Source of the DNA: a virus
Taxonomy: Duplodnaviria; Caudoviricetes
DNA: 53,545 nt
IMG/VR virus record: IMGVR_UViG_3300037248_000068
Span: 1-53,545 of that record
Reading direction: 5' to 3' (one strand)
Shown here: positions 25,139-43,978 of the stretch, one piece after another
Layout: each line of letters begins with the position of its first letter
How positions within the stretch are numbered: position 1 is the stretch's first letter
Position numbers and translations under genes: made by a program
The notes under the pieces: generated by a model
Told to the model about the DNA's origin: nothing
Database searches by the model: none
The model's input: only the letters and a program-made list of their open reading frames with translations

Positions 25139-25202
25139 ACTCGAAGGAATACTGACGAAAGCCGCGGACGAAGTTGACAAAATACTAGGAGGCGCGAAGT
25201 GA
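24984..25202 (+). CDS. Conserved small protein overlapping the portal C-terminus
   Basis: GGGAG SD; 'W.EW...PET..LL'. Confidence 0.7.
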   Translation: MREQAWTEWLASPETRALLAYLRRRRDPVVALLFSGAEVPPVTQGRAVAYHELEGILTKAADEVDKILGGAK

Positions 25203-25666
25203 GCGTAGGGGTCCATTCATTTCAAATTCCGCACGAGCACGTACAGCCGACGCGCGACATGGTGATTGTCCGCCTGCCCATGCCGCCGTCGAAAATCGGC
25301 AGCATCCTTACGGCGGATGTCACTCGCGACATGATGCAGCACAACGTCATGGCCGGTCGGGTCTTCGCAATGGGGCCGCTCGCGTTCAGTTTCAAGGATG
25401 GCGAAGGCGGCCTGGGGCGACAAGACGTAAAAATTGGCGACTGGGTGCTGTTCCGCCCGTTCGCCGGCACCATGATCCAGGGCGGCAAGCTTGTGAGCAC
25501 GAGCGGCTGGCGGTACGTATCCAGCTTCAACGACGTGATAGGCATCATCCCGGCCGCGCGCATGCCGGACGCCGCGTCGCTGGAGTGGGACTACGCGGAC
25601 GCTGAAACGGAGCCGCCGGCCGCAGCATTCAACTTCAACAGCATCCGGGAGCGCGTCACGGCATGA
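25199..25666 (+). CDS. groES: GroES-like co-chaperonin
   Basis: QPTRDMVIV, G.V.A.GP, VKIGDWV.F..FAG, NDVIG. Confidence 0.85.
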   Translation: MSVGVHSFQIPHEHVQPTRDMVIVRLPMPPSKIGSILTADVTRDMMQHNVMAGRVFAMGPLAFSFKDGEGGLGRQDVKIGDWVLFRPFAGTMIQGGKLVSTSGWRYVSSFNDVIGIIPAARMPDAASLEWDYADAETEPPAAAFNFNSIRERVTA

Positions 25667-26958: not shown

Positions 26959-27753
26959 CTACAGCCCGAAATCGTACTTCAAGCCGAGCCAATATTGAGT
27001 CGTGAACTTGGCAGCGCCGCTCACCATGACGTTGCCGTTGGTGCCGAGTACGTTGCTGAAGGTGTCGCCGCGCTGCGGCCAGAAGACATCGGCGTAAACC
27101 TTCAGCGAGCCGTCGTTCGGCTTTCCGGTTGCGTCAAGCGTCTGCCAGCGAAATCCGGTCGTGAGGCCCGGAGCCCACCCGACAGCGGCCCCGCCCGCCT
27201 GTGCGAAGTTTCCGGTCAAACCGAACTCTTCCATTTTCAAGCCGACGTACTGGCGTGGCGCGGTGTTGACTGCAACGCCCGTGGGCAACGTTGGCGTGAA
27301 GGACGGGAATGGCAGGTTGAATCCGGCGCCGCTACCAAACGCCGCAAATGCGGCCTGGATTGCCGAGAACGCACCTATCCCGATATCCGCTTCCTGCGTG
27401 GAACTCCAGCGGGACGCGACCGACACTGGCCCGGCTGTCGCCGAAATGTTCTGATACCACCCGTCGGCTTCGAACTGCATCCAAGAGCCGAGTGGCCCCC
27501 TGTTGGTGATCCACCCGCACCCGCCGCCCACGGCACCGCCGGCAGCATTCACGTTGCTGTTGAGCAAGCTCGTTGCCAAAATACTGTTGCCCGACATGCT
27601 CGTTTGCGCGACGCCGGCTTGCGTGCCTAGGCCGCAGTACCAGCCGGACCCGGTGTTCGTCGAAAACGGCAGCGGCGCCTTGACAGGCATGTCGGCCGCG
27701 GACGCGACACTGGCGAAAAGCGCGAGCGCGGTACAAAGTACGTACTTTTTCAT
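26959..27753 (-). CDS. Outer-membrane beta-barrel protein (Omp25/31/RopB-like)
   Basis: Signal peptide plus 'AADMPVKAP', 'SGWY.G', C-terminal beta-signal-like 'GLKYDF'. Confidence 0.8.
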   Translation of the reverse strand: MKKYVLCTALALFASVASAADMPVKAPLPFSTNTGSGWYCGLGTQAGVAQTSMSGNSILATSLLNSNVNAAGGAVGGGCGWITNRGPLGSWMQFEADGWYQNISATAGPVSVASRWSSTQEADIGIGAFSAIQAAFAAFGSGAGFNLPFPSFTPTLPTGVAVNTAPRQYVGLKMEEFGLTGNFAQAGGAAVGWAPGLTTGFRWQTLDATGKPNDGSLKVYADVFWPQRGDTFSNVLGTNGNVMVSGAAKFTTQYWLGLKYDFGL

Positions 27754-28091: not shown

Positions 28092-29621
28092 TCAATCCAC
28101 GGCCATAGACACCGCGCACGCGTCCAATCGGTCAGGGGAGCGTCCGATGTCCTTATGTATTTTCACCTTCGGCGCCATGAACAGGCGCATTTTTTCATCA
28201 CGCCGGCAGCCGCCCTGCCCCCACTTGTACGCCGCCGCTTCCTCTTGCAAAAGCTTGTCGTTCGGCATCGACACGTCGCCTTGCAACCAACGCTGAAGCT
28301 TGTCGTGCAATTCCGCGCGCCTGTTTCCGTACAGTACGTCGTTTAGCGCACCCCACGCAAAATTGACAGCAATAACCTTTTCCAGGCCGTACTTGCGCAT
28401 GCGAAGACGCGTTGCGTCGACAAGTCCTTTGCCAGTCCCGGTGACATCAATCAGTATAGCGTCCATATCAAATCGTTCGAACGTCTGCCTAAGCCAGTCC
28501 GCCTGCACGTTGTAATCACGGTTGGCCAGCTCGCCCCACACGCGCGCTCCGATCGCCGAACCCTGCCGGTCGCATACCCAAGGCTTGTCCTGCCCGTCGC
28601 CGGCTGGGTCGACGCACAACAGCTTCAACGCGCCCGCGGAGGGCGCTGGCTTGCGCACCATCGCAGCATTGACGATAGACGCAGGGAAAAAGTCCAGCGT
28701 ACTATCCGCCATGAAACATTCATCGTACGTCGCCGGATACTCTTGCCGCGTCAGCCGATGAATAGTTTCGGGCTGCCCCCCGTTCATTGTTGCCAATGTG
28801 TAGTTTTTCAGCCAAAACCAGTATAGTTGCTCGCGATCAAAACCGTGAAACTTGGCATAATCTTCGAAGTCCTTCGGCGCTTTCCAGCCCTGCGGGACTT
28901 CCGCACGGTACTCAGGCATGAGGCCCCAGTGCAGGAAGTGCACTCGCCACGGTCCTTTGTTTTGTGCAGCGTGCGCTTCCCTGCACATGTTATAGAACAT
29001 GCCGGACTGCCCGTTGCCCGTGCTCTCTTGAATGATTTCCGTGTGCGCGATGTCCTGTACGGTCTGCATCAAGCCGGACGACAAATCCTCGGTATTGTCA
29101 AAAAAAGCGGCTTCTGAAAGGTGCATCAAATGAAAGTCGTCCGACCGGCCAATGTCACCGCCTTCGGCCGACGCGACCTTGTACAGCGATTTCAGCCTGT
29201 CAAAAATCAACTCCCGCGCATTCGAAGCACCTAGATGCGGGCGTGCGGAGAGCGGGAGCCCCGCGTAAAACTCTTTTACTTCGCGATGCAGGTTTGCGGC
29301 GCTGTCGGACCGGTGCGCAACGATTTGAGCCCGGCGTCCGAACTCCGTAGCTGTACGGTGGAAGTACCGCCCGCTTACGTACATGCTCACGCCCATGCGG
29401 CGCGCTTTCGGAATCAGCGCACGTACCATACCAAAGGTCTTGCGTTCATCCTGAATTTTGGCATGCAGAACGCGTTGCGCGCTATTGAGGATAAAGGGCA
29501 CGCGGTCGCCGCCCTCAAGAGGGCGCACCCGTAAAAACGTCTCGCGGTATCTGTCAAAATCGAGAAGCCGGGCCCGTATGTCCTCTTTGCTCTGTACGGG
29601 AGGCGTCCAAGGATAGTTCAC
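28092..29621 (-). CDS. terL: Terminase large subunit
   Basis: LNSAQ, KARRMGVS, HLSEAAF, ESTGNG, VDPAGDG, SPDRLDA. Confidence 0.93.
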   Translation of the reverse strand: MNYPWTPPVQSKEDIRARLLDFDRYRETFLRVRPLEGGDRVPFILNSAQRVLHAKIQDERKTFGMVRALIPKARRMGVSMYVSGRYFHRTATEFGRRAQIVAHRSDSAANLHREVKEFYAGLPLSARPHLGASNARELIFDRLKSLYKVASAEGGDIGRSDDFHLMHLSEAAFFDNTEDLSSGLMQTVQDIAHTEIIQESTGNGQSGMFYNMCREAHAAQNKGPWRVHFLHWGLMPEYRAEVPQGWKAPKDFEDYAKFHGFDREQLYWFWLKNYTLATMNGGQPETIHRLTRQEYPATYDECFMADSTLDFFPASIVNAAMVRKPAPSAGALKLLCVDPAGDGQDKPWVCDRQGSAIGARVWGELANRDYNVQADWLRQTFERFDMDAILIDVTGTGKGLVDATRLRMRKYGLEKVIAVNFAWGALNDVLYGNRRAELHDKLQRWLQGDVSMPNDKLLQEEAAAYKWGQGGCRRDEKMRLFMAPKVKIHKDIGRSPDRLDACAVSMAVD

Positions 29622-29623
29622 GA

Positions 29624-30016
29624 TTACGAGATCACCTTTTGGCTCGCGGTTGCCTTCTCCAGCTCGGCGGCGGCATTTACAAGCGTTGCTGGAGACACCT
29701 TGGCGACGGCTGCCACGAGCTGCGGGTGATCCACTTGATTGACGGCTTCAATCAAATCGCCCGGCGACGCGGCCTTGACAACGGCCACTTGATGCGCACG
29801 CGTCCCAGTGTACGCCGACCACAGCGTCGTGGCAATCGGCGCTAGAATGCCGATGCCTACCACGATTTCGTTTAAACCTTTGAATACGTGATCAAAGCCC
29901 GCGACGATGTCGCCCTGCTGACTGGCCGAAATCGCGCCAAACGTCAGCGCCGCGCCAGCTCCGAAACTGACAATGTTTCGGCCGCCAGCCATGTACGGTG
30001 CAAAATTGAAAGCCAT
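29624..30016 (-). CDS. Putative holin (2 TM)
   Basis: AGGAGG SD; two hydrophobic helices, 'TLWS' end of TM2. Confidence 0.5.
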   Translation of the reverse strand: MAFNFAPYMAGGRNIVSFGAGAALTFGAISASQQGDIVAGFDHVFKGLNEIVVGIGILAPIATTLWSAYTGTRAHQVAVVKAASPGDLIEAVNQVDHPQLVAAVAKVSPATLVNAAAELEKATASQKVIS

Positions 30017-30030
30017 GTACTTCCTCCTGA

Positions 30031-32418
30031 TTATGCTGCTTGCGCCAGCCACGCGGGCGAGTTGTCGTTGGATGCGGGGTCGAGGTCGCGGTTGAGCAGA
30101 AAATTGTGCGTTCCCATGACATAGCCGGTCCCTTGGAACCCGATGTAGACGGTGCCGTAGGTATTGGCATCACCCTCGATTGTGCTCACTGTATCGATGA
30201 TACCGAGGGGAAAATCCGTCAGCTTGGTCCAAGTCGTGGCGTGATTGTCGCTCTCCCAGATGCCGTATACGCCGTTTACCCATCCCGCAAGATAGATCGC
30301 TGGATAGCCCGAACCGCCCGGTTTGGCTTTGCCGAACCCGAAAGCCCAAACCTCGTGGATGGTGCCGGGAACGGCGTTGCACGTCACAGTGCCGGCGCTG
30401 TCCGTGCACTCTTCGAATGTCAGGTCCGTGTGCGGGTACGGCCCCGGCGTCTGATAGCCCGATGAGAAATACATGTCACCGGCATTGCCAGGAACGCAGC
30501 GGAGCTTGGCATTGAAGAATGACAACGTGCTGCTGTCGAAGATCCCGCTCTTGGCCAGCGTCCACGTCCAGCTTCCCGCAGCGTAGACACCCTTGTAGAT
30601 ACCCGCGGTGCTTGATCCGCCGTAGTTGTAGGCATAGTACGTGTCAGTCGAGACGCGATCGGCGCACATCGTCTGCCGGAAATAGTTGGCACTCGCGCTC
30701 CAGCCGATCGTGCCCGAAGTCGCCACGCCGCTGATCGGTAGCAGCGACCATGACGTTCCGCCGTTCGTGGTGGCATAGAGGCCGCCGTTCGGCGCCTGCA
30801 TCCACAGCATCACGTTGGCGGAACTCCGCGCCACCGAGCCGCCGTCGAAGCTGGTACCGCTGCCGCTCGGCACGGCGCCAATCTGTGCCCACGTGCCGCC
30901 GCCATTCGTCGAGAGTGATGAAAAGTCCCCGCTGCCAATATATGAGATACACATGCAGATGATGTCGGCCGGCGTCGCTGAGGCCCAGTCCGCCGACGCT
31001 CCCGCCACCACGTTCGTGAATCCACCGTACCCGCCGTGCTGCGAGAACGCTGGGTAGGCCGCCGGATTGGTGATGGTGAATATCTGCTGATCGGATACCG
31101 CGACAAGAGGATTACTTCCGCCCGTCCACGGGCTGATCGCCCATCTGGATACGAGCTGCTCCATGCCGGCGCCCTGCGACGTCCAGGTCAGCGACGCGCC
31201 GCCCGTGAAGCCGCTCGCGGTCCACACGTCGAAGCCGGACGTCGAGAATAGGAAATTCGACTGCGCCGGATCGAAGGCAATCTGGCCGACATCGGTGAAG
31301 GTGCTCTTGGTGTGGGCGAGCCACGGGATGTCGGTCGCAGCCAAGGTCATGTTCCCGGCCGCGACATAGCCGCCAAACGAAGCGCCACCGTTGGTGCTGT
31401 ACGTCAATTGTCCCGAGATGTTGGCGGCAGTCACGTTGCTGTTGTTCGCCGGATCGATGGCAACGCCCGTGATTGGTCCCGACGTGCTGGAGCCGACCGT
31501 CACGGTCGACCACGTTCCGCCGACGCCGCCGGAGTAGATGTAGAGCGTCTGATCGGTGCCGCCGTTGTTGCCGACCACGTAGAGCTTACCATTGGCAGGC
31601 GCGGATACCATGAACATGTGCGTCGTTGGCATCCCGCTCGTATTCAGCTCCGTCCAGGACGAACCGCCGTTGGCTGAGTGATAGACGCCGGTGCCGTAAC
31701 TCGTGATGTAGATGCCCTGCGTGGCGCCACCGCTCGTGCCGGAGTTGAGATCGAACGCTACCAGCATCCCATTCGAGGTCGCATTGGTGATTCCGGTCAC
31801 GGCGCCGAACGATGTGCCGCCGTTGGTCGACGTGAAGCACCCGCTTGCCTCCGTACACACCAACACGATGTTGGCGTTGGCGGGGTCAATCGCAATCTTC
31901 GGCCCCCACCAACGATCGTTGGCGTTGTAGGTTGAGTTCTGCGTGAAACCGGTCGCGGTCCACGTCGCCGACGATCCGCTCTTGAGATTGGCTGTCTTAT
32001 ACAAATAGCCGCCCATCATCATGTAGGCGACGTTGGTGTTGCTCGGCGCTATCCTGATCTCAAAGTTGTCGCAAAATGTGGACGGCGTGTTGAGGCACGC
32101 GCCGGCCGCGTTCATGGGATCTCCATTCGGCAGCGACGTAGAGGTGACAAGCTGCTGCCATGTCCCATTGGCGACCGAGACGTAGGCTCCATAGGTGTCG
32201 GTGCCGACTACTTTAGTCGTGGTGCCGCTGTTGTTGCACTGGCCGACGCCCTGATCGCATTGGATGTCGATGCGCGTGGAGAACCCACCGGCGCCAAGGT
32301 TGACGCGGCTGAATTGCTGGCCAGCAGAGGGCGCCTGGGCACCACTGAACTGTACGGTTTGCGCCGGTATCGAAACCTGCACTAAAATAACCAGCAACAG
32401 CGCTAATAATAACCTCAT
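30031..32418 (-). CDS. Secreted beta-propeller protein, GH74/xyloglucanase-like with BNR/Asp-box repeats
   Basis: Signal peptide; GAGGF, TD.YGAY, repeated S.NGG.SW/F, 'GFGKAKPG..YPAIY.AG....YGIW.S'; ssrA-like C-terminal tail. Confidence 0.75.
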   Translation of the reverse strand: MRLLLALLLVILVQVSIPAQTVQFSGAQAPSAGQQFSRVNLGAGGFSTRIDIQCDQGVGQCNNSGTTTKVVGTDTYGAYVSVANGTWQQLVTSTSLPNGDPMNAAGACLNTPSTFCDNFEIRIAPSNTNVAYMMMGGYLYKTANLKSGSSATWTATGFTQNSTYNANDRWWGPKIAIDPANANIVLVCTEASGCFTSTNGGTSFGAVTGITNATSNGMLVAFDLNSGTSGGATQGIYITSYGTGVYHSANGGSSWTELNTSGMPTTHMFMVSAPANGKLYVVGNNGGTDQTLYIYSGGVGGTWSTVTVGSSTSGPITGVAIDPANNSNVTAANISGQLTYSTNGGASFGGYVAAGNMTLAATDIPWLAHTKSTFTDVGQIAFDPAQSNFLFSTSGFDVWTASGFTGGASLTWTSQGAGMEQLVSRWAISPWTGGSNPLVAVSDQQIFTITNPAAYPAFSQHGGYGGFTNVVAGASADWASATPADIICMCISYIGSGDFSSLSTNGGGTWAQIGAVPSGSGTSFDGGSVARSSANVMLWMQAPNGGLYATTNGGTSWSLLPISGVATSGTIGWSASANYFRQTMCADRVSTDTYYAYNYGGSSTAGIYKGVYAAGSWTWTLAKSGIFDSSTLSFFNAKLRCVPGNAGDMYFSSGYQTPGPYPHTDLTFEECTDSAGTVTCNAVPGTIHEVWAFGFGKAKPGGSGYPAIYLAGWVNGVYGIWESDNHATTWTKLTDFPLGIIDTVSTIEGDANTYGTVYIGFQGTGYVMGTHNFLLNRDLDPASNDNSPAWLAQAA

Positions 32419-32419
32419 G

Positions 32420-33148
32420 TCAGTCCCACGTCGCGGCTACTATGCCTGCGTTGGTCGTGTTGGTCAGCCCGTTCATGTTCGGCGTTAGAGAGCCGGCGAC
32501 GGCGCTGTTTCCAAGAACGCCTCCGAAAGTAGAGATGCTGATAGATTTATCGTTCGTCATGTTAGTGAAATTCGGCGCCCCCGCAACAGTCTGCATTCCA
32601 AAACCAATAGCAAAACCAGCGGATGGCACCGTCACGGCAGAACTGCAAGCCAGGGCGCCGCCAGAAACAGAAGCGCTCGATCCGTTGCAGCTTGTCGTCG
32701 GCGTCGTCGACGTAAGATTAGCTAGGGTGCCTACGCCGACAAGCATGCGAAACCACGAGTTGGCAGACGCTGACGTGGCAACAATATTCTGTGAGCCGCT
32801 ACATGCGACCGTGCCGTACCACAGCGTCACTACGTAGTTGGTGTTGAAGGCCCCGGTGTCAGCAGCCTTCGACAGGGAGACCGGCGAAGACGTGCATGCG
32901 GTCACGGCAGAGATGGTGCTCCCCTGATAGCCGGCTACGCCGACGACTATGAACCCAGCCGTGACGCTGACGGCCTGCGTGCACGTCGTGGCGAAGCCGC
33001 AGGCAGCATTCTCTTCAATGTCGGTCGGTGTCCACGTCGGTGCCGGGGCACTTCCACTTATGGATACGTCATAGTTGGAGTCACGCGTCTGCCACCCCGC
33101 AAATGCTGGTAGAGCCCAAAGCAACAGTGCGAGAGCTAGACGGATCAC
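32420..33148 (-). CDS. Signal-peptide, S/T-rich beta protein
   Basis: GTG start MIRLALALLLWALPAFA|G. Confidence 0.7.
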   Translation of the reverse strand: MIRLALALLLWALPAFAGWQTRDSNYDVSISGSAPAPTWTPTDIEENAACGFATTCTQAVSVTAGFIVVGVAGYQGSTISAVTACTSSPVSLSKAADTGAFNTNYVVTLWYGTVACSGSQNIVATSASANSWFRMLVGVGTLANLTSTTPTTSCNGSSASVSGGALACSSAVTVPSAGFAIGFGMQTVAGAPNFTNMTNDKSISISTFGGVLGNSAVAGSLTPNMNGLTNTTNAGIVAATWD

Positions 33149-34149
33149 AGCGTGAACCCCGTCGCCGTCACGGATACGACGCCGCCGGTCCCCGGTGCAG
33201 CGGAAATGACCGCGATGCCTGTGTTGACGGCGCTCGCCGGGACGCATGGCGAGAATATCATCTCTGTCACACCGAGCCCGGAGGCGAGCGGTGCCGTCCA
33301 CTGCGTGAAGTTGAGTGTTCCTGTGATCGTGCCGGTCACGGTCGCGTTGCCCGTCGCCGCCGCCGTGGCGTTGGCCCGGATCGACATGCTGCACAAGTAG
33401 GTCGTGACTGACGCGCCTGTGGCGAGCGTCGCGGTGGTCGCCCCCGTCGTGCCCGTCGCCGAGGCCGTGATGGGCGTGGCTCCGGCTGGATAGCCCGCGC
33501 CGCCGATGCGCAGCCCGCCGTGAAGATCCATCGACAGGTAGTCGGTTTGCGCGGTTGTGTAGGCGGGGGCGGCCGTCGTCACCGCCGCCATCACTAGCGA
33601 GCCGGTCTGGCCGCTCGTGGTCGAGCTCTGCGCAAGACCTACTGCACCGGTCACGTAAGCATTGACACTAGGACACGCGACCGCACTTGGTGCCGTGCCG
33701 TAGTTACTGACGCACCCCGAGTTGATCGCCGTACCGCCCATCTGGTTCATGTTGACGGACTGGTTGGCCGCCAACGCACCGCCGGCCTGGAACGGCGTGC
33801 CGAGCGTCGTGTTGATCGTGGTGAGCGCCGTGTTGCCGGTCGTCTGAAGCGCGGACGTGGCGGCCCCGGTCGGAAGAGGCAACGCTGCGGCGCTCATCGG
33901 AACGGCCGTACCGCCGGTCACGCCCTGCATCGGGAGAGCAAAGCTGGCGTTGGGAGTGCCGGGGGCCGTCGCCAGCGGATTACCCGCCGTGTCGCCGAGT
34001 ATCTGCATCAGCGACTGCACGCCGCTGCCGACGTCCTTCGACCTGAACGTGACGCAGCTCGTGGCGCACGGTGTCACGAGGATGGCGTTATCCGCCGCCT
34101 CTGCGGGCAGCGCTGACAGCAGCGCGAGCAGGAGCAGAATCTTGCGCAT
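33145..34149 (-). CDS. Signal-peptide, T/A/G-rich fibre-like protein
   Basis: MRKILLLLALLSALPAEA|A; 'LPLPTGAATSALQTT' fibre-type repeat. Confidence 0.75.
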   Translation of the reverse strand: MRKILLLLALLSALPAEAADNAILVTPCATSCVTFRSKDVGSGVQSLMQILGDTAGNPLATAPGTPNASFALPMQGVTGGTAVPMSAAALPLPTGAATSALQTTGNTALTTINTTLGTPFQAGGALAANQSVNMNQMGGTAINSGCVSNYGTAPSAVACPSVNAYVTGAVGLAQSSTTSGQTGSLVMAAVTTAAPAYTTAQTDYLSMDLHGGLRIGGAGYPAGATPITASATGTTGATTATLATGASVTTYLCSMSIRANATAAATGNATVTGTITGTLNFTQWTAPLASGLGVTEMIFSPCVPASAVNTGIAVISAAPGTGGVVSVTATGFTL

Positions 34150-34415
34150 TACTTTTCCTCCGAAGTAGCAGGCGCGGCGGGCGGCGGCTGTCTGGCAGCA
34201 ACCGCGCGGTCCACGGCGGCGCGCGCCGCCGCCTCGTTCTGAGCCCGCACAGACGCCACGGTAATCTGCATGATATCGTTCCACTCATCCCACGACCCGC
34301 GCTTGATGGTATTCAGTATCTTGTCTACCTGATCCGCAGTGTACGGACCAAGCGTGTAGGTCTGCTGCCCGAGAGCGACCGTCGTCATCAGAAGCAGAGC
34401 GACAAGCGTTCGCAT
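34149..34415 (-). CDS. Small signal-peptide protein (88 aa)
   Basis: MRTLVALLLMTTVALG|Q. Confidence 0.65.
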   Translation of the reverse strand: MRTLVALLLMTTVALGQQTYTLGPYTADQVDKILNTIKRGSWDEWNDIMQITVASVRAQNEAAARAAVDRAVAARQPPPAAPATSEEK

Positions 34416-34619
34416 TCAGAAGACTCCTGCGTACTGCGAATTGCATGATTGCGTGAAGTCGAAGCCCGTACCAGCACAGCCCGAAGGCGTTACGGTTACG
34501 GTTCCAGTCCCTGGAGTCTGCGGCACCCCGGGCGCAAAGCCGCCGGGAACGCCGGCCTGCCCCCACGCGGCTGCGGCGAGGGCGACGATGGCGAGGAGCG
34601 TGAGGGGGAGGCGCATCAC
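34416..34619 (-). CDS. Small signal-peptide protein with a Cys pair (67 aa)
   Basis: MRLPLTLLAIVALAAAAWG|Q; C...FDFTQSCNSQY. Confidence 0.65.
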   Translation of the reverse strand: MMRLPLTLLAIVALAAAAWGQAGVPGGFAPGVPQTPGTGTVTVTPSGCAGTGFDFTQSCNSQYAGVF

Positions 34620-34714
34620 TTGCCATCCGATTTATTGTGACGACAACGAAGAAGATTGAACATCGCCATGCCGAGAGTAGCGGCGAGCATAATCTCACTG
34701 AGATAATGCCGCAT
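34616..34714 (-). CDS. Small TM peptide (32 aa)
   Basis: Coupled at both ends; MRHYLSEIMLAATLGMAMFNLL... Confidence 0.4.
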   Translation of the reverse strand: MRHYLSEIMLAATLGMAMFNLLRCRHNKSDGK

Positions 34715-35163
34715 CACTGCGCCCCCAGCAGCTTACTGTACTCGGCCGGCTGCAAGACCTTCATCGCGGCCACGATCACCTTGTCGCCGTTCTGCATGAG
34801 CTTGTAGAGCCCGCCGATGCGATCCATCAGGTCGTCGGCCTGCTTGTGGGTGAGTGCGGCGGCGTGGTCGCTGCCGTACTTGTCGAGCACGGCGCGAAGC
34901 GACGCCTTGGTGCGCCAGTCCATGTTGCGGTCGGACTCGATGGCGAAGCTGACGCCGTAATTGGCGGCGGATGCGAGCGTGAGCGGGGGGCAGTCCTTGC
35001 GCTCCGGATCAACTTTAGCATCCCACGTTGGCGGGCAGTCCTTGATGGGCCTACCGTCAGCCTCAGAGAGCGCGGCGGTCATGTCTACGGTCCACGGCTT
35101 CGCGTCGTCGGCGAGCGCCAAGGAGTACCAAATCATCGCGACCGCAATAAGTGCAGTTTTCAA
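34714..35163 (-). CDS. Signal-peptide protein, possible tailspike assembly partner
   Basis: AGGAG SD plus TTG; MKTALIAVAMIWYSLALA|DD; two Cys. Confidence 0.7.
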   Translation of the reverse strand: MKTALIAVAMIWYSLALADDAKPWTVDMTAALSEADGRPIKDCPPTWDAKVDPERKDCPPLTLASAANYGVSFAIESDRNMDWRTKASLRAVLDKYGSDHAAALTHKQADDLMDRIGGLYKLMQNGDKVIVAAMKVLQPAEYSKLLGAQ

Positions 35164-42889: not shown

Positions 42890-43978
42890 TTAGCCTTCTG
42901 TTTGATGACATCGATCCAAGGAAACAAGCGCGCCGCGTGCGGAACATTTTGGCTGCTTCCGCGATAGTACGCTAAATCCACAATCACAGCCGTCACCGCA
43001 AGGTACAGCATAATCCCGCAGAATGCGGCCCGTAGCAGCCACAGCAAGCAACGAAGTGATCGGCATGTAGAGCGGCATTGAGTAGCAAGAGGCAACAGCA
43101 AACGCGACGACAACCGGCCACTCTTTGGACCCCGTACGCAAGAGTGCAACACTGAGTATGCTGAGCGGCAGAAGCGCGCCCATCCCGTATTCAAACAAGA
43201 GCTGCAGCGCATCATTGTGTGCGTGCCCCGGATACAAAACCTGACCCGCTTGCGTGATATTCACAGCAGAGAACGCACCCGGCCCCCAACCAAACCAGTT
43301 CAGCCCGTGCCATGCCACTTCCCAAATCAACATACGCTCTTGGTCCGACGTACGTCCCAACGGCATGAACAGGTAAAAAATACCCACTGCGGCGACTATC
43401 GCACCGAGCGGCCACGCCCGCCTGAATCGCAGGGCAATCAAGCCGACTGCCAAGGCGAGCCACGCACCGCGCGACTGAGAGAGGACAAGACCTGGCACGA
43501 GTGGGACTATCCACAGCCACATCCGCTCCGTCGCCAGCGCGACGATAAGCAAAGCCAGCACGGCGCCTTGCTGTACGCTGTTGACGTACAACCCCGGAGG
43601 TGCCGTGGAAGTGACGGGGAGAAGCTGCCATCCCGCGTATTGCAAAACAGCCACTGCCGACGATACTGCACCCCCGATCGCAAGACCCGCGTACAAACCT
43701 CGCAACGTTGTCAACGTCGATCCTAGCCACAGATTGAGCCCCATCAACACGACCAACCAAAACCCGAATACGGCATTGTACGGAACTACGCTGAACCAAA
43801 CACCGATCGCGGCGTACAAGATGAATAGCACGCCGAACCCATGCAACACCGTGAACGGCGCGCTGCGGAACACGGTAAAAATTGACAGAACCGCCAACAC
43901 GGGCCACTGCGTTGCGATATACGCACCCGTAATACCGGGCACGTAGCAGAGCGACACGATGGCGCCGAGCCAAACCAC
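42890..43978 (-). CDS. O-antigen ligase / O-oligosaccharyltransferase family (Wzy_C) membrane protein
   Basis: About 11 TM helices; 'SQSRGAWLA', 'S..ER..IW', 'G.G.G.F', 'HAHND.LQ...E.G'. Confidence 0.88.
   Translation of the reverse strand: MVWLGAIVSLCYVPGITGAYIATQWPVLAVLSIFTVFRSAPFTVLHGFGVLFILYAAIGVWFSVVPYNAVFGFWLVVLMGLNLWLGSTLTTLRGLYAGLAIGGAVSSAVAVLQYAGWQLLPVTSTAPPGLYVNSVQQGAVLALLIVALATERMWLWIVPLVPGLVLSQSRGAWLALAVGLIALRFRRAWPLGAIVAAVGIFYLFMPLGRTSDQERMLIWEVAWHGLNWFGWGPGAFSAVNITQAGQVLYPGHAHNDALQLLFEYGMGALLPLSILSVALLRTGSKEWPVVVAFAVASCYSMPLYMPITSLLAVAATGRILRDYAVPCGDGCDCGFSVLSRKQPKCSARGALVSLDRCHQTEG

Follow-up and report, generated by a model that had tools for sequence, protein, structure and literature searches.

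Does a phage gene whose product ends like a trans-translation tag carry a copy of that tag, or does it encode a different signal of its own? The question is raised by IMG/VR record IMGVR_UViG_3300037248_000068, a virus of the Caudoviricetes whose whole sequence of 53,545 bases was analysed here (the window). On its minus strand, the open reading frame (ORF) 30031..32418 encodes a GH74-like protein that ends in ...THNFLLNRDLDPASNDNSPAWLAQAA, with the stop codon TAA at 30031-30033. An original prediction, made from the sequence alone, had taken this ending for a genome-encoded mimic of the alphaproteobacterial ssrA (transfer-messenger RNA, tmRNA) tag, serving either to destroy copies that fail export or to time processing in the periplasm. 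We found that the ending belongs to a tail of 24 residues, which is conserved at the protein level, anchored to the C-terminus and portable among unrelated catalytic domains. As judged by sequence comparison, the likeness of this tail to alphaproteobacterial ssrA tags is real but partial, and the tail is not an ssrA copy. It is probably a conserved, modular, phage-associated C-terminal recognition tag rather than a plain copy of ssrA.

A conserved tail of 24 residues

The tail has the consensus N-[FYW]-L-L-[KN]-R-D-[LI]-D-P-[AS]-[SA]-N-D-N-[SDT]-P-[MAV]-[WFG]-L-x-[KQER]-[AV]-[AG]-COOH. In an alignment of 26 tails (A1), positions with L, D, N and P are invariant and others with N, L, R, P and D near-invariant, R, P and D being kept at 90% or more. 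The ORF ends as the original prediction had read it, and the conservation of the ending is beyond chance. The stretch that was first singled out (30034-30075) lies inside the conserved unit, but the unit itself is longer and covers 24 residues (30034..30105; Table 1).

The tail is present in 27 of the 121 collected proteins of the GH74-like family and extends far beyond it. The A1 profile, 32 positions long, matched 502 cluster representatives at E <= 0.001, of which 84 at E <= 1e-10, among 1.84 billion; these clusters are defined at 50% identity, are metagenomic and come without genomic context. Of 140 newly listed profile matches, 137 have the motif NDNxP at a distance of exactly 7 residues to the C-terminus, and 162 of the 261 collected proteins bear the tail in this register, with Pro exactly 7 residues from the end. 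Among these 162 tails, NDN is kept in 157 and is preceded by AS or AA in 128. The final two residues are AA (107 tails), VA (30), VG (12) or others (13), and 152 tails fit the pattern [AV][AG]; position -3 is mostly occupied by K (92), Q (20), E (15) or R (13).

Across 18 distinct DNA copies, the invariant residues of the tail are each encoded by 2-5 synonymous codons. Since the synonymous codons vary while the residues are fixed, selection acts on the peptide and not on a DNA or RNA element, and a role as an element of either kind was ruled out by this free variation at synonymous sites. Homologues without the tail (45-51% identity) stop at ...GQFN or ...GQF, right where the tail begins, and the existence of such close relatives indicates that the tail is dispensable for the fold. 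In the AlphaFold2 model of the window protein, the predicted local distance difference test score (pLDDT) is about 65 for residues 771-790, which include one helical turn, and below 50 for residues 791-795. The modelled tail is exposed and flexible, as expected of a linear motif.

This tail is previously undescribed in Pfam, NCBIfam, PHROGs, the PDB and the literature searched. It has no match in Pfam, NCBIfam or PHROG, even when Pfam and NCBIfam were searched at E <= 1-10. A sequence search of the PDB with the tail profile gave chance-level matches only (E 1.1 or more), a search of the ESM Atlas with residues 766-795 gave no usable match, and the string DPASNDN is absent from the literature searched.

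Partial likeness to ssrA tags

For comparison with real tags, alpha-type tmRNA genes were located in an alphaproteobacterial metagenome-assembled genome (MAG; G001) and in a sample of the class (119 of 121 genomes matched). This tally and the 401-genome tally given below include the unpublished genome G041, which no other claim uses. ARAGORN read 27 tags from 30 loci, with 3 loci lacking a gene, and tag counts were made by hand. Of these tags, 26 start with ANDN and all 27 end in AA.

The second half of the tail comes close to this pattern. When the last 14 residues of the window protein are set by eye against tag ANDNYAPVAQAA, 8 of its 12 residues match, and the last four residues of the two are the same. 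This tag belongs to G001, the sole alphaproteobacterial genome in which a copy of the tail was found. The tail family as a whole departs from the tags in several respects. It has A-x-NDN, with one extra residue between A and NDN as compared to the ANDN of the tags. Nine residues always follow NDN in the tails, as against 6-8 in the 26 ANDN tags, while the Caulobacter tag AANDNFAEEFAVAA also has nine (PMC9393093). Proline at NDN+2 is invariant in the tails and occurs in 0 of 27 tags. Position -3 in the tags is L (19), V (4), A (2), M (1) or Q (1), so that 26 of 27 have L, V, A or M where most tails have K, Q, E, R or H. The final tripeptide of a tail equals a tag end in few cases (QAA 15, AAA 2 and MAA 1 of 162 tails); the window protein ends in QAA, and its last five residues, LAQAA, which resemble a tag more than is usual in the family, are shared by only 2 of 162 tails. 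Finally, the FLLKRDLDP half is conserved in the tails and has no counterpart in the 27 tags.

The proposed mimicry of ssrA was thus upheld in part. The prevalence of NDN and of terminal AA, the fixed distance to the C-terminus and the flexible last five residues agree with it, but only the second half of the unit is tag-like, and the first half, the proline, the lysine at -3 and the spacing differ. No tRNA, tmRNA or Rfam family was found in the complete phage record (ARAGORN, Rfam, RF01849). Since the phage has no tmRNA and the tail is encoded in frame within the gene, the claim can only be one of mimicry.

Fold of the tail-bearing protein

The N-terminus of the window protein looks like a Sec signal peptide, which would presumably be cleaved. 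The AlphaFold2 model (76 homologues; mean pLDDT 89.1, predicted template-modelling score 0.89) has a helix at residues 2-15 and a disordered segment at 16-30, followed by a beta-rich body. This body contains 12 cysteines, several of them closely paired, which fits an exported protein. Foldseek against the PDB returned GH74 xyloglucanases first (6p2m_A, E 6.5e-45, template-modelling (TM) scores 0.71/0.80), and at least the top 18 ranks were all GH74 enzymes, with TM scores of 0.69-0.81 and identities of 16-25%. The name GH74-like given in the original prediction is borne out by these ranks and holds at the level of the modelled fold, a tandem seven-bladed propeller. Pfam gave a sub-threshold match to Sortilin-Vps10 only (29.5 bits against a cut-off of 33), the NCBIfam matches were under their cut-offs, and PHROG gave none. 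When the whole protein was compared with GenBank phages, one partial match was obtained, without the tail.

Carriers and distribution of the tail

The tail is borne by phage-encoded, mostly exported, polysaccharide-active enzymes. Among carriers of at least 300 amino acids (aa; 60 of 85 scanned), Pfam recognised BNR/Sortilin in 11 and GH43, GDSL/SGNH and polysaccharide lyase in one each, and 46 of the 60 have no Pfam family. Many profile matches span only positions 7/8-32 of the tail profile, which indicates that the tail sits on unrelated upstream bodies; the carriers comprise GH74-like, GH43-like, SGNH-esterase-like and lyase-like proteins as well as proteins without a family. A survey of the tail and of its link to signal peptides had been proposed with the original prediction, and it revealed a widespread tail (the 502 clusters above) on carriers that mostly start like exported proteins: a signal-peptide-like N-terminus is found in 84 of 111 full-length carriers, and most of the remaining 25 look N-terminally cut. 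Apart from the tail, many large exported phage proteins have in common a short motif, G-W-[IT]-H-G or A-W-P-R-H-G, immediately behind the hydrophobic signal segment, whether they have a tail or not (L009, L007, L119 and several others).

When 185,579 species, each represented by one genome, were scanned for the pattern, 6 stretches emerged, of which 2 loci were confirmed, one in the MAG G001 and one on a 1-kb contig. The same kind of scan in IMG/VR gave 26 stretches and 17 viral loci, with one tail gene each. The contrast of 17 viral loci with 2 among the 185,579 species genomes suggests that the tail is phage-associated. A DNA pattern for the C-terminal half occurred in 1 of 401 alphaproteobacterial genomes, at the same MAG locus, and the 24-aa consensus tail searched against 50,697 GenBank phage records gave only a chance match (E=9). 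The MAG copy (L001 3097-6087, plus strand), the only one known from a cellular genome, is split over three frames, by frameshifts or assembly errors, and is surrounded by genes for FkbM methyltransferases, AT3 acyltransferases, an SGNH-AT3 protein and a DDE transposase.

Candidate partners encoded by the phages

Genes that accompany the tail were sought by comparing seven whole records, five of them complete and tail-bearing, the window among these, and two incomplete (G122, G129). The five complete tail-bearing phages share almost no genes otherwise, and all five encode, 0.6-3.5 kb upstream of the tail gene, an exported protein that we call X. Its homologues number 811 at E <= 0.001, and among those listed the conserved C-terminal domain is 69-100% identical and the start is signal-peptide-like in 106 of 120. 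X consists of a variable Thr/Ala/Gly-rich body and a C-terminal domain of about 110 aa ending in AWG[YF]x[LQK]. In the AlphaFold2 model, residues 225-335 form a beta-sandwich (pLDDT 80-90), for which the best VIA match (Z 8.3) is a generic jelly roll, and the Atlas neighbours of X are viral hypothetical clusters. None of the 811 homologues is annotated, and they seem to come from viruses.

The incomplete records G122 and G129 gave no match to X, nor was it detected within the +-10 kb loci of other tail-bearing records, including G125 and G127. Conversely, a tail gene lies within 10 kb at only 6 of the 62 X loci from IMG/VR. X is often followed, about 0.7-0.95 kb downstream, by a large exported enzyme, and at many loci such an enzyme is without the tail. 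The scarcity of tail genes near X weakens it as a dedicated receptor. A complex prediction of X residues 200-335 with the tail scored 0.00 against a mark of 0.32, with the controls not folded, and speaks neither for nor against an interaction.

The second candidate was a membrane protein resembling Wzy_C/O-antigen ligases. Of 11 tail-bearing viral records, 4 encode it, the window being one of them. Five further records gave no match to a profile built from these four proteins, and the gene was rejected as an obligate partner. The other copies are at L009 3120-4193, L050 1195-2502 and L052 994-2133, and the four proteins share a conserved AHND..L....FE.G loop.

Possible roles of the tail

Uncultured soil phages append the tail directly to large polysaccharide-active enzymes, most of them Sec-exported. 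If it is the recognition tag that we consider probable, it would act as a short linear motif, whose free C-terminus a conserved partner would read once the enzyme has been exported. The [AV][AG] end of 152 of the 162 tails has a chemistry that fits a C-terminus reader. Since no phage gene is an obligate companion, the reader would be host-encoded, or there is none. Our leading guess, a tentative one, is a periplasmic C-terminus-binding PDZ-type tail-specific protease of the Prc/CtpA class; reading by such a protease would yield timed trimming or turnover of the enzyme and would represent the periplasmic arm of ssrA-tag recognition. Several points weigh against this account. No binding partner of the tail was found in the searches made, and no phage gene accompanies the tail in every record (X is in 5 of the 7 whole records compared, the Wzy_C-like gene in 4 of 11). 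The tail-specific protease prefers an apolar residue at -3, from which the Lys of 92 of the 162 tails differs. A few carriers (P0247, P0257, P0260) may truly be without a signal peptide, which does not suit a purely periplasmic reader. Furthermore, the pattern scans catch near-consensus copies only, so that a restriction to phages rests on 19 loci.

A narrower reading, possible but doubtful, is that the portable tag mimics the host ssrA tag and so plugs exported depolymerase-type enzymes into the host machinery of tag recognition. The tag would then be acted on by the tail-specific protease of the periplasm or, in copies that were not exported, by ClpXP/SspB, and host quality control would become a timer or an activator for enzymes released at lysis. 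That the tail is simply a cytoplasmic degron, by which copies that failed export are passed to SspB through A-x-NDN and to ClpXP through the terminal AA, appears rather improbable from the sequences compared. It draws on the agreements described above (NDN, the AS or AA before it, the frequent AA end, the ANDN start and AA end of the sampled tags, the nine residues of the Caulobacter tag, and the four final residues shared with G001, itself a carrier of a tail copy), and the motif is missing from the searched host genomes, as expected if it imitates a signal that is not encoded in host proteins. Phage proteins with ssrA-like tags are known (PMC9635641). What is known of E. coli cuts both ways: in a pentapeptide screen, with the consensus [L/F/Y/W]-[L/A/R]-L-A-A, terminal AA is favourable when -5 is L and -4 is A, but AA alone is insufficient, 39% of AA-ending pentapeptides being weak (PMC10862746). 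Such a degron would leave the conserved first half of the tail unexplained, as well as the invariant proline, the mostly charged or polar residue at -3, the nine residues after NDN where the sampled tags have 6-8, and the 55 of 162 tails that end otherwise than in AA. Because the carriers are exported, cytoplasmic ClpXP and SspB would meet unexported copies only, and host exported proteins are not known to use such a fail-safe.

We regard it as doubtful that the tail works without any proteolysis, as a Ca-binding or stabilising cap or as a signal for export, surface retention or modification (e.g., a sequon for a Wzy_C/WaaL-like enzyme). The stretch D-x-D-P-x-x-N-D-N is rich in Ca-ligand residues, and NDNxPx[FW] resembles the DXNDN linker motif of cadherins, in which the set XEX-DXD-D(R/Y)(D/E)-XDX-DXNDN binds three Ca ions (PMC8691648). 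The profile search of the PDB matched the ends of protocadherin EC domains over NDNxPxF (E 1.8 for 4zpl_A and 7.9 for another, with only NDNxPx[FW] shared), and a kinase catalytic loop over the first half; these resemblances have E values of 1 or more and are at chance level. The one genomic copy sits in a polysaccharide locus among acyltransferase and methyltransferase genes, which would suit this explanation, as would the Wzy_C-like gene in 4 of 11 records; in the other 7, two of them complete, this gene is not detectable. Ca binding would account neither for the constant spacing from the C-terminus nor for an end of small apolar residues, and the existence of close tail-less homologues indicates that the fold does not need the tail. 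A docking peptide, which like a tiny dockerin would tether the enzyme to X or to released particles after lysis, is unlikely. In its favour, X lies just upstream of the tail gene in all five complete tail-bearing records, which have hardly any other genes in common. It is mostly signal-peptide-like at its start and, like the tail, has its strongly conserved module at the C-terminal end of varying bodies, with 70-90% identity across the 120 homologues listed. At other loci with the tail, small exported beta-rich proteins are encoded upstream, and the enzyme types that carry the tail are those docking in multi-enzyme systems. The X loci without tail genes, many followed by a tail-less exported enzyme, and the tail-bearing records in which X was not detected oppose it, and a tail this strongly conserved is hard to reconcile with a partner that diverges or is missing. 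A chance resemblance in a non-functional tail is very improbable: short-motif likeness is cheap, the same 24 residues also resembling a kinase loop and a cadherin linker, but conservation over 502 clusters with free synonymous variation already refutes the notion of a non-functional tail. The ssrA likeness itself could be coincidental. Three famous motifs are visible in the same 24 residues, which makes likeness alone weak evidence.

Genomic context

The window is a complete virus record with direct terminal repeats, and its DNA is present in two soil metagenome runs, from which it may derive. PHROG and Pfam scans found genes for a primase/helicase, a DNA polymerase, methyltransferases, a capsid protein, a terminase and a GH108 endolysin; a lysozyme domain was recognised in a further protein, of 1,316 aa. 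The terminase large subunit identifies the window as a tailed phage. The product of the gene between the tail gene and the terminase has no match in PHROG or Pfam; its position and hydrophobicity make it a candidate holin-like protein, and T7-like phages have their holin in the slot adjoining the terminase. The protein encoded between the tail gene and X has no Pfam match. Altogether, at least 5 putative exported proteins are encoded in a row in the 30-35 kb region. The beta-barrel-like protein has 43 homologues, mostly on phage-sized contigs, and one homologue carries the JGI name "opacity protein-like surface antigen".

Table 1. Positions in the window of the tail, its gene and other features discussed here.
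Feature	Position	Strand	Basis
GroES-like (Cpn10) candidate beside structural genes	25199-25666	+	E 5e-4, just under Pfam cut-off
Outer-membrane beta-barrel-like protein, 264 aa, signal peptide	26959-27753	-	Sequence appearance
Terminase large subunit	28092..29621	-	phrog_2, E 1.4e-17
130-aa protein, two hydrophobic segments, between tail gene and terminase	29624..30016	-	ORF
AGGAGG (30023-30028) and ATG (30014-30016) of the next gene	30014..30028	-	Directly after the TAA of the tail
Putatively exported, tail-bearing GH74-fold protein P0001, 795 aa	30031..32418	-	ORF and translation
ssrA-like sub-part ASNDNSPAWLAQAA of the original prediction	30034..30075	-	Translation compared with 27 ARAGORN tags
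Full conserved C-terminal tag NFLLNRDLDPASNDNSPAWLAQAA, 24 residues	30034..30105	-	Alignment, profile, position statistics
Signal-peptide-like N-terminus MRLLLALLLVILVQVSIPAQ..., extent approximate	32359..32418	-	Sequence reading
Intervening 242-aa protein, signal-peptide-like start VIRLALALLLWALPAFAGW...	32420..33148	-	ORF
X, exported 335-aa protein, conserved C-terminal jelly-roll domain	33148..34152	-	Upstream neighbour of tail gene
Small gene, signal-peptide-like product start	34416-34619	-	Sequence reading
Small gene, signal-peptide-like product start	34714-35163	-	Sequence reading
Wzy_C/O-antigen-ligase-like membrane protein	42890..43978	-	Pfam PF04932, E 2.5e-9, 37.5 bits (cut-off 31.7)

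Implications and comparison with known systems

If the tag has a partner, it marks an unannotated class of phage exported polysaccharide-active enzymes, of at least 502 clusters at 50% identity. If it is read, it offers a handle to find such enzymes and to learn how phages time or place them at lysis, and it could be used in alphaproteobacteria as a small, transferable tag that directs proteins to the envelope or controls their turnover. Should the tail mimic ssrA, it would be a family-wide, phage-specific degron mimic on hundreds of proteins, absent from host proteomes, and the first virus-made copy of the trans-translation tag to occur family-wide on exported proteins. Should it not, the case would illustrate how a longer, different signal can be masked by five residues that look like a famous motif.

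The carrier and the tail each have known relatives in form. With the GH74 xyloglucanases (6p2m, 6p2o, 2cn3) the window protein has the two-propeller fold in common (TM 0.7-0.8, 21-25% identity), and the likeness is one of fold only, the Pfam and NCBIfam matches being below their cut-offs. Portable C-terminal docking and sorting modules include the dockerin of dockerin-cohesin pairs, the C-terminal domain (CTD) of the type IX secretion system (T9SS), PEP-CTERM with its exosortase, and LPXTG. Like them, the tail is a portable C-terminal add-on of diverse secreted carbohydrate-active enzymes, and the likeness extends to the gene for a beta-sandwich protein, X, in the neighbourhood. The tail is, however, 24 aa long and not a domain-type module of about 70-80 aa, and it lacks both a transmembrane helix and a basic tail. 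With no Pfam or NCBIfam model matched and no hydrophobic helix in its 24 residues, it was not found to belong to PEP-CTERM, T9SS CTD, LPXTG or dockerin.

A further comparison is with ssrA tags. Both are exposed, unstructured peptides with A-(x)-NDN, small C-terminal residues (mostly AA) and a similar length from NDN to the end. In contrast to the tags, the tail is encoded in frame in the genome of a phage without tmRNA, comprises 24 residues, has Lys and not Leu or Val at -3, ends in VA or VG in a quarter of cases and sits on exported proteins. Mycobacteriophage integrase and repressor bear ssrA-like C-terminal degradation tags, part of integration-dependent immunity, that are likewise phage-encoded and genome-encoded. 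Those tags are on cytoplasmic regulators and are removed by integration (PMC9635641), whereas the tail described here is a fixed 24-mer on hundreds of proteins, borne by exported enzymes in lytic-type gene modules.

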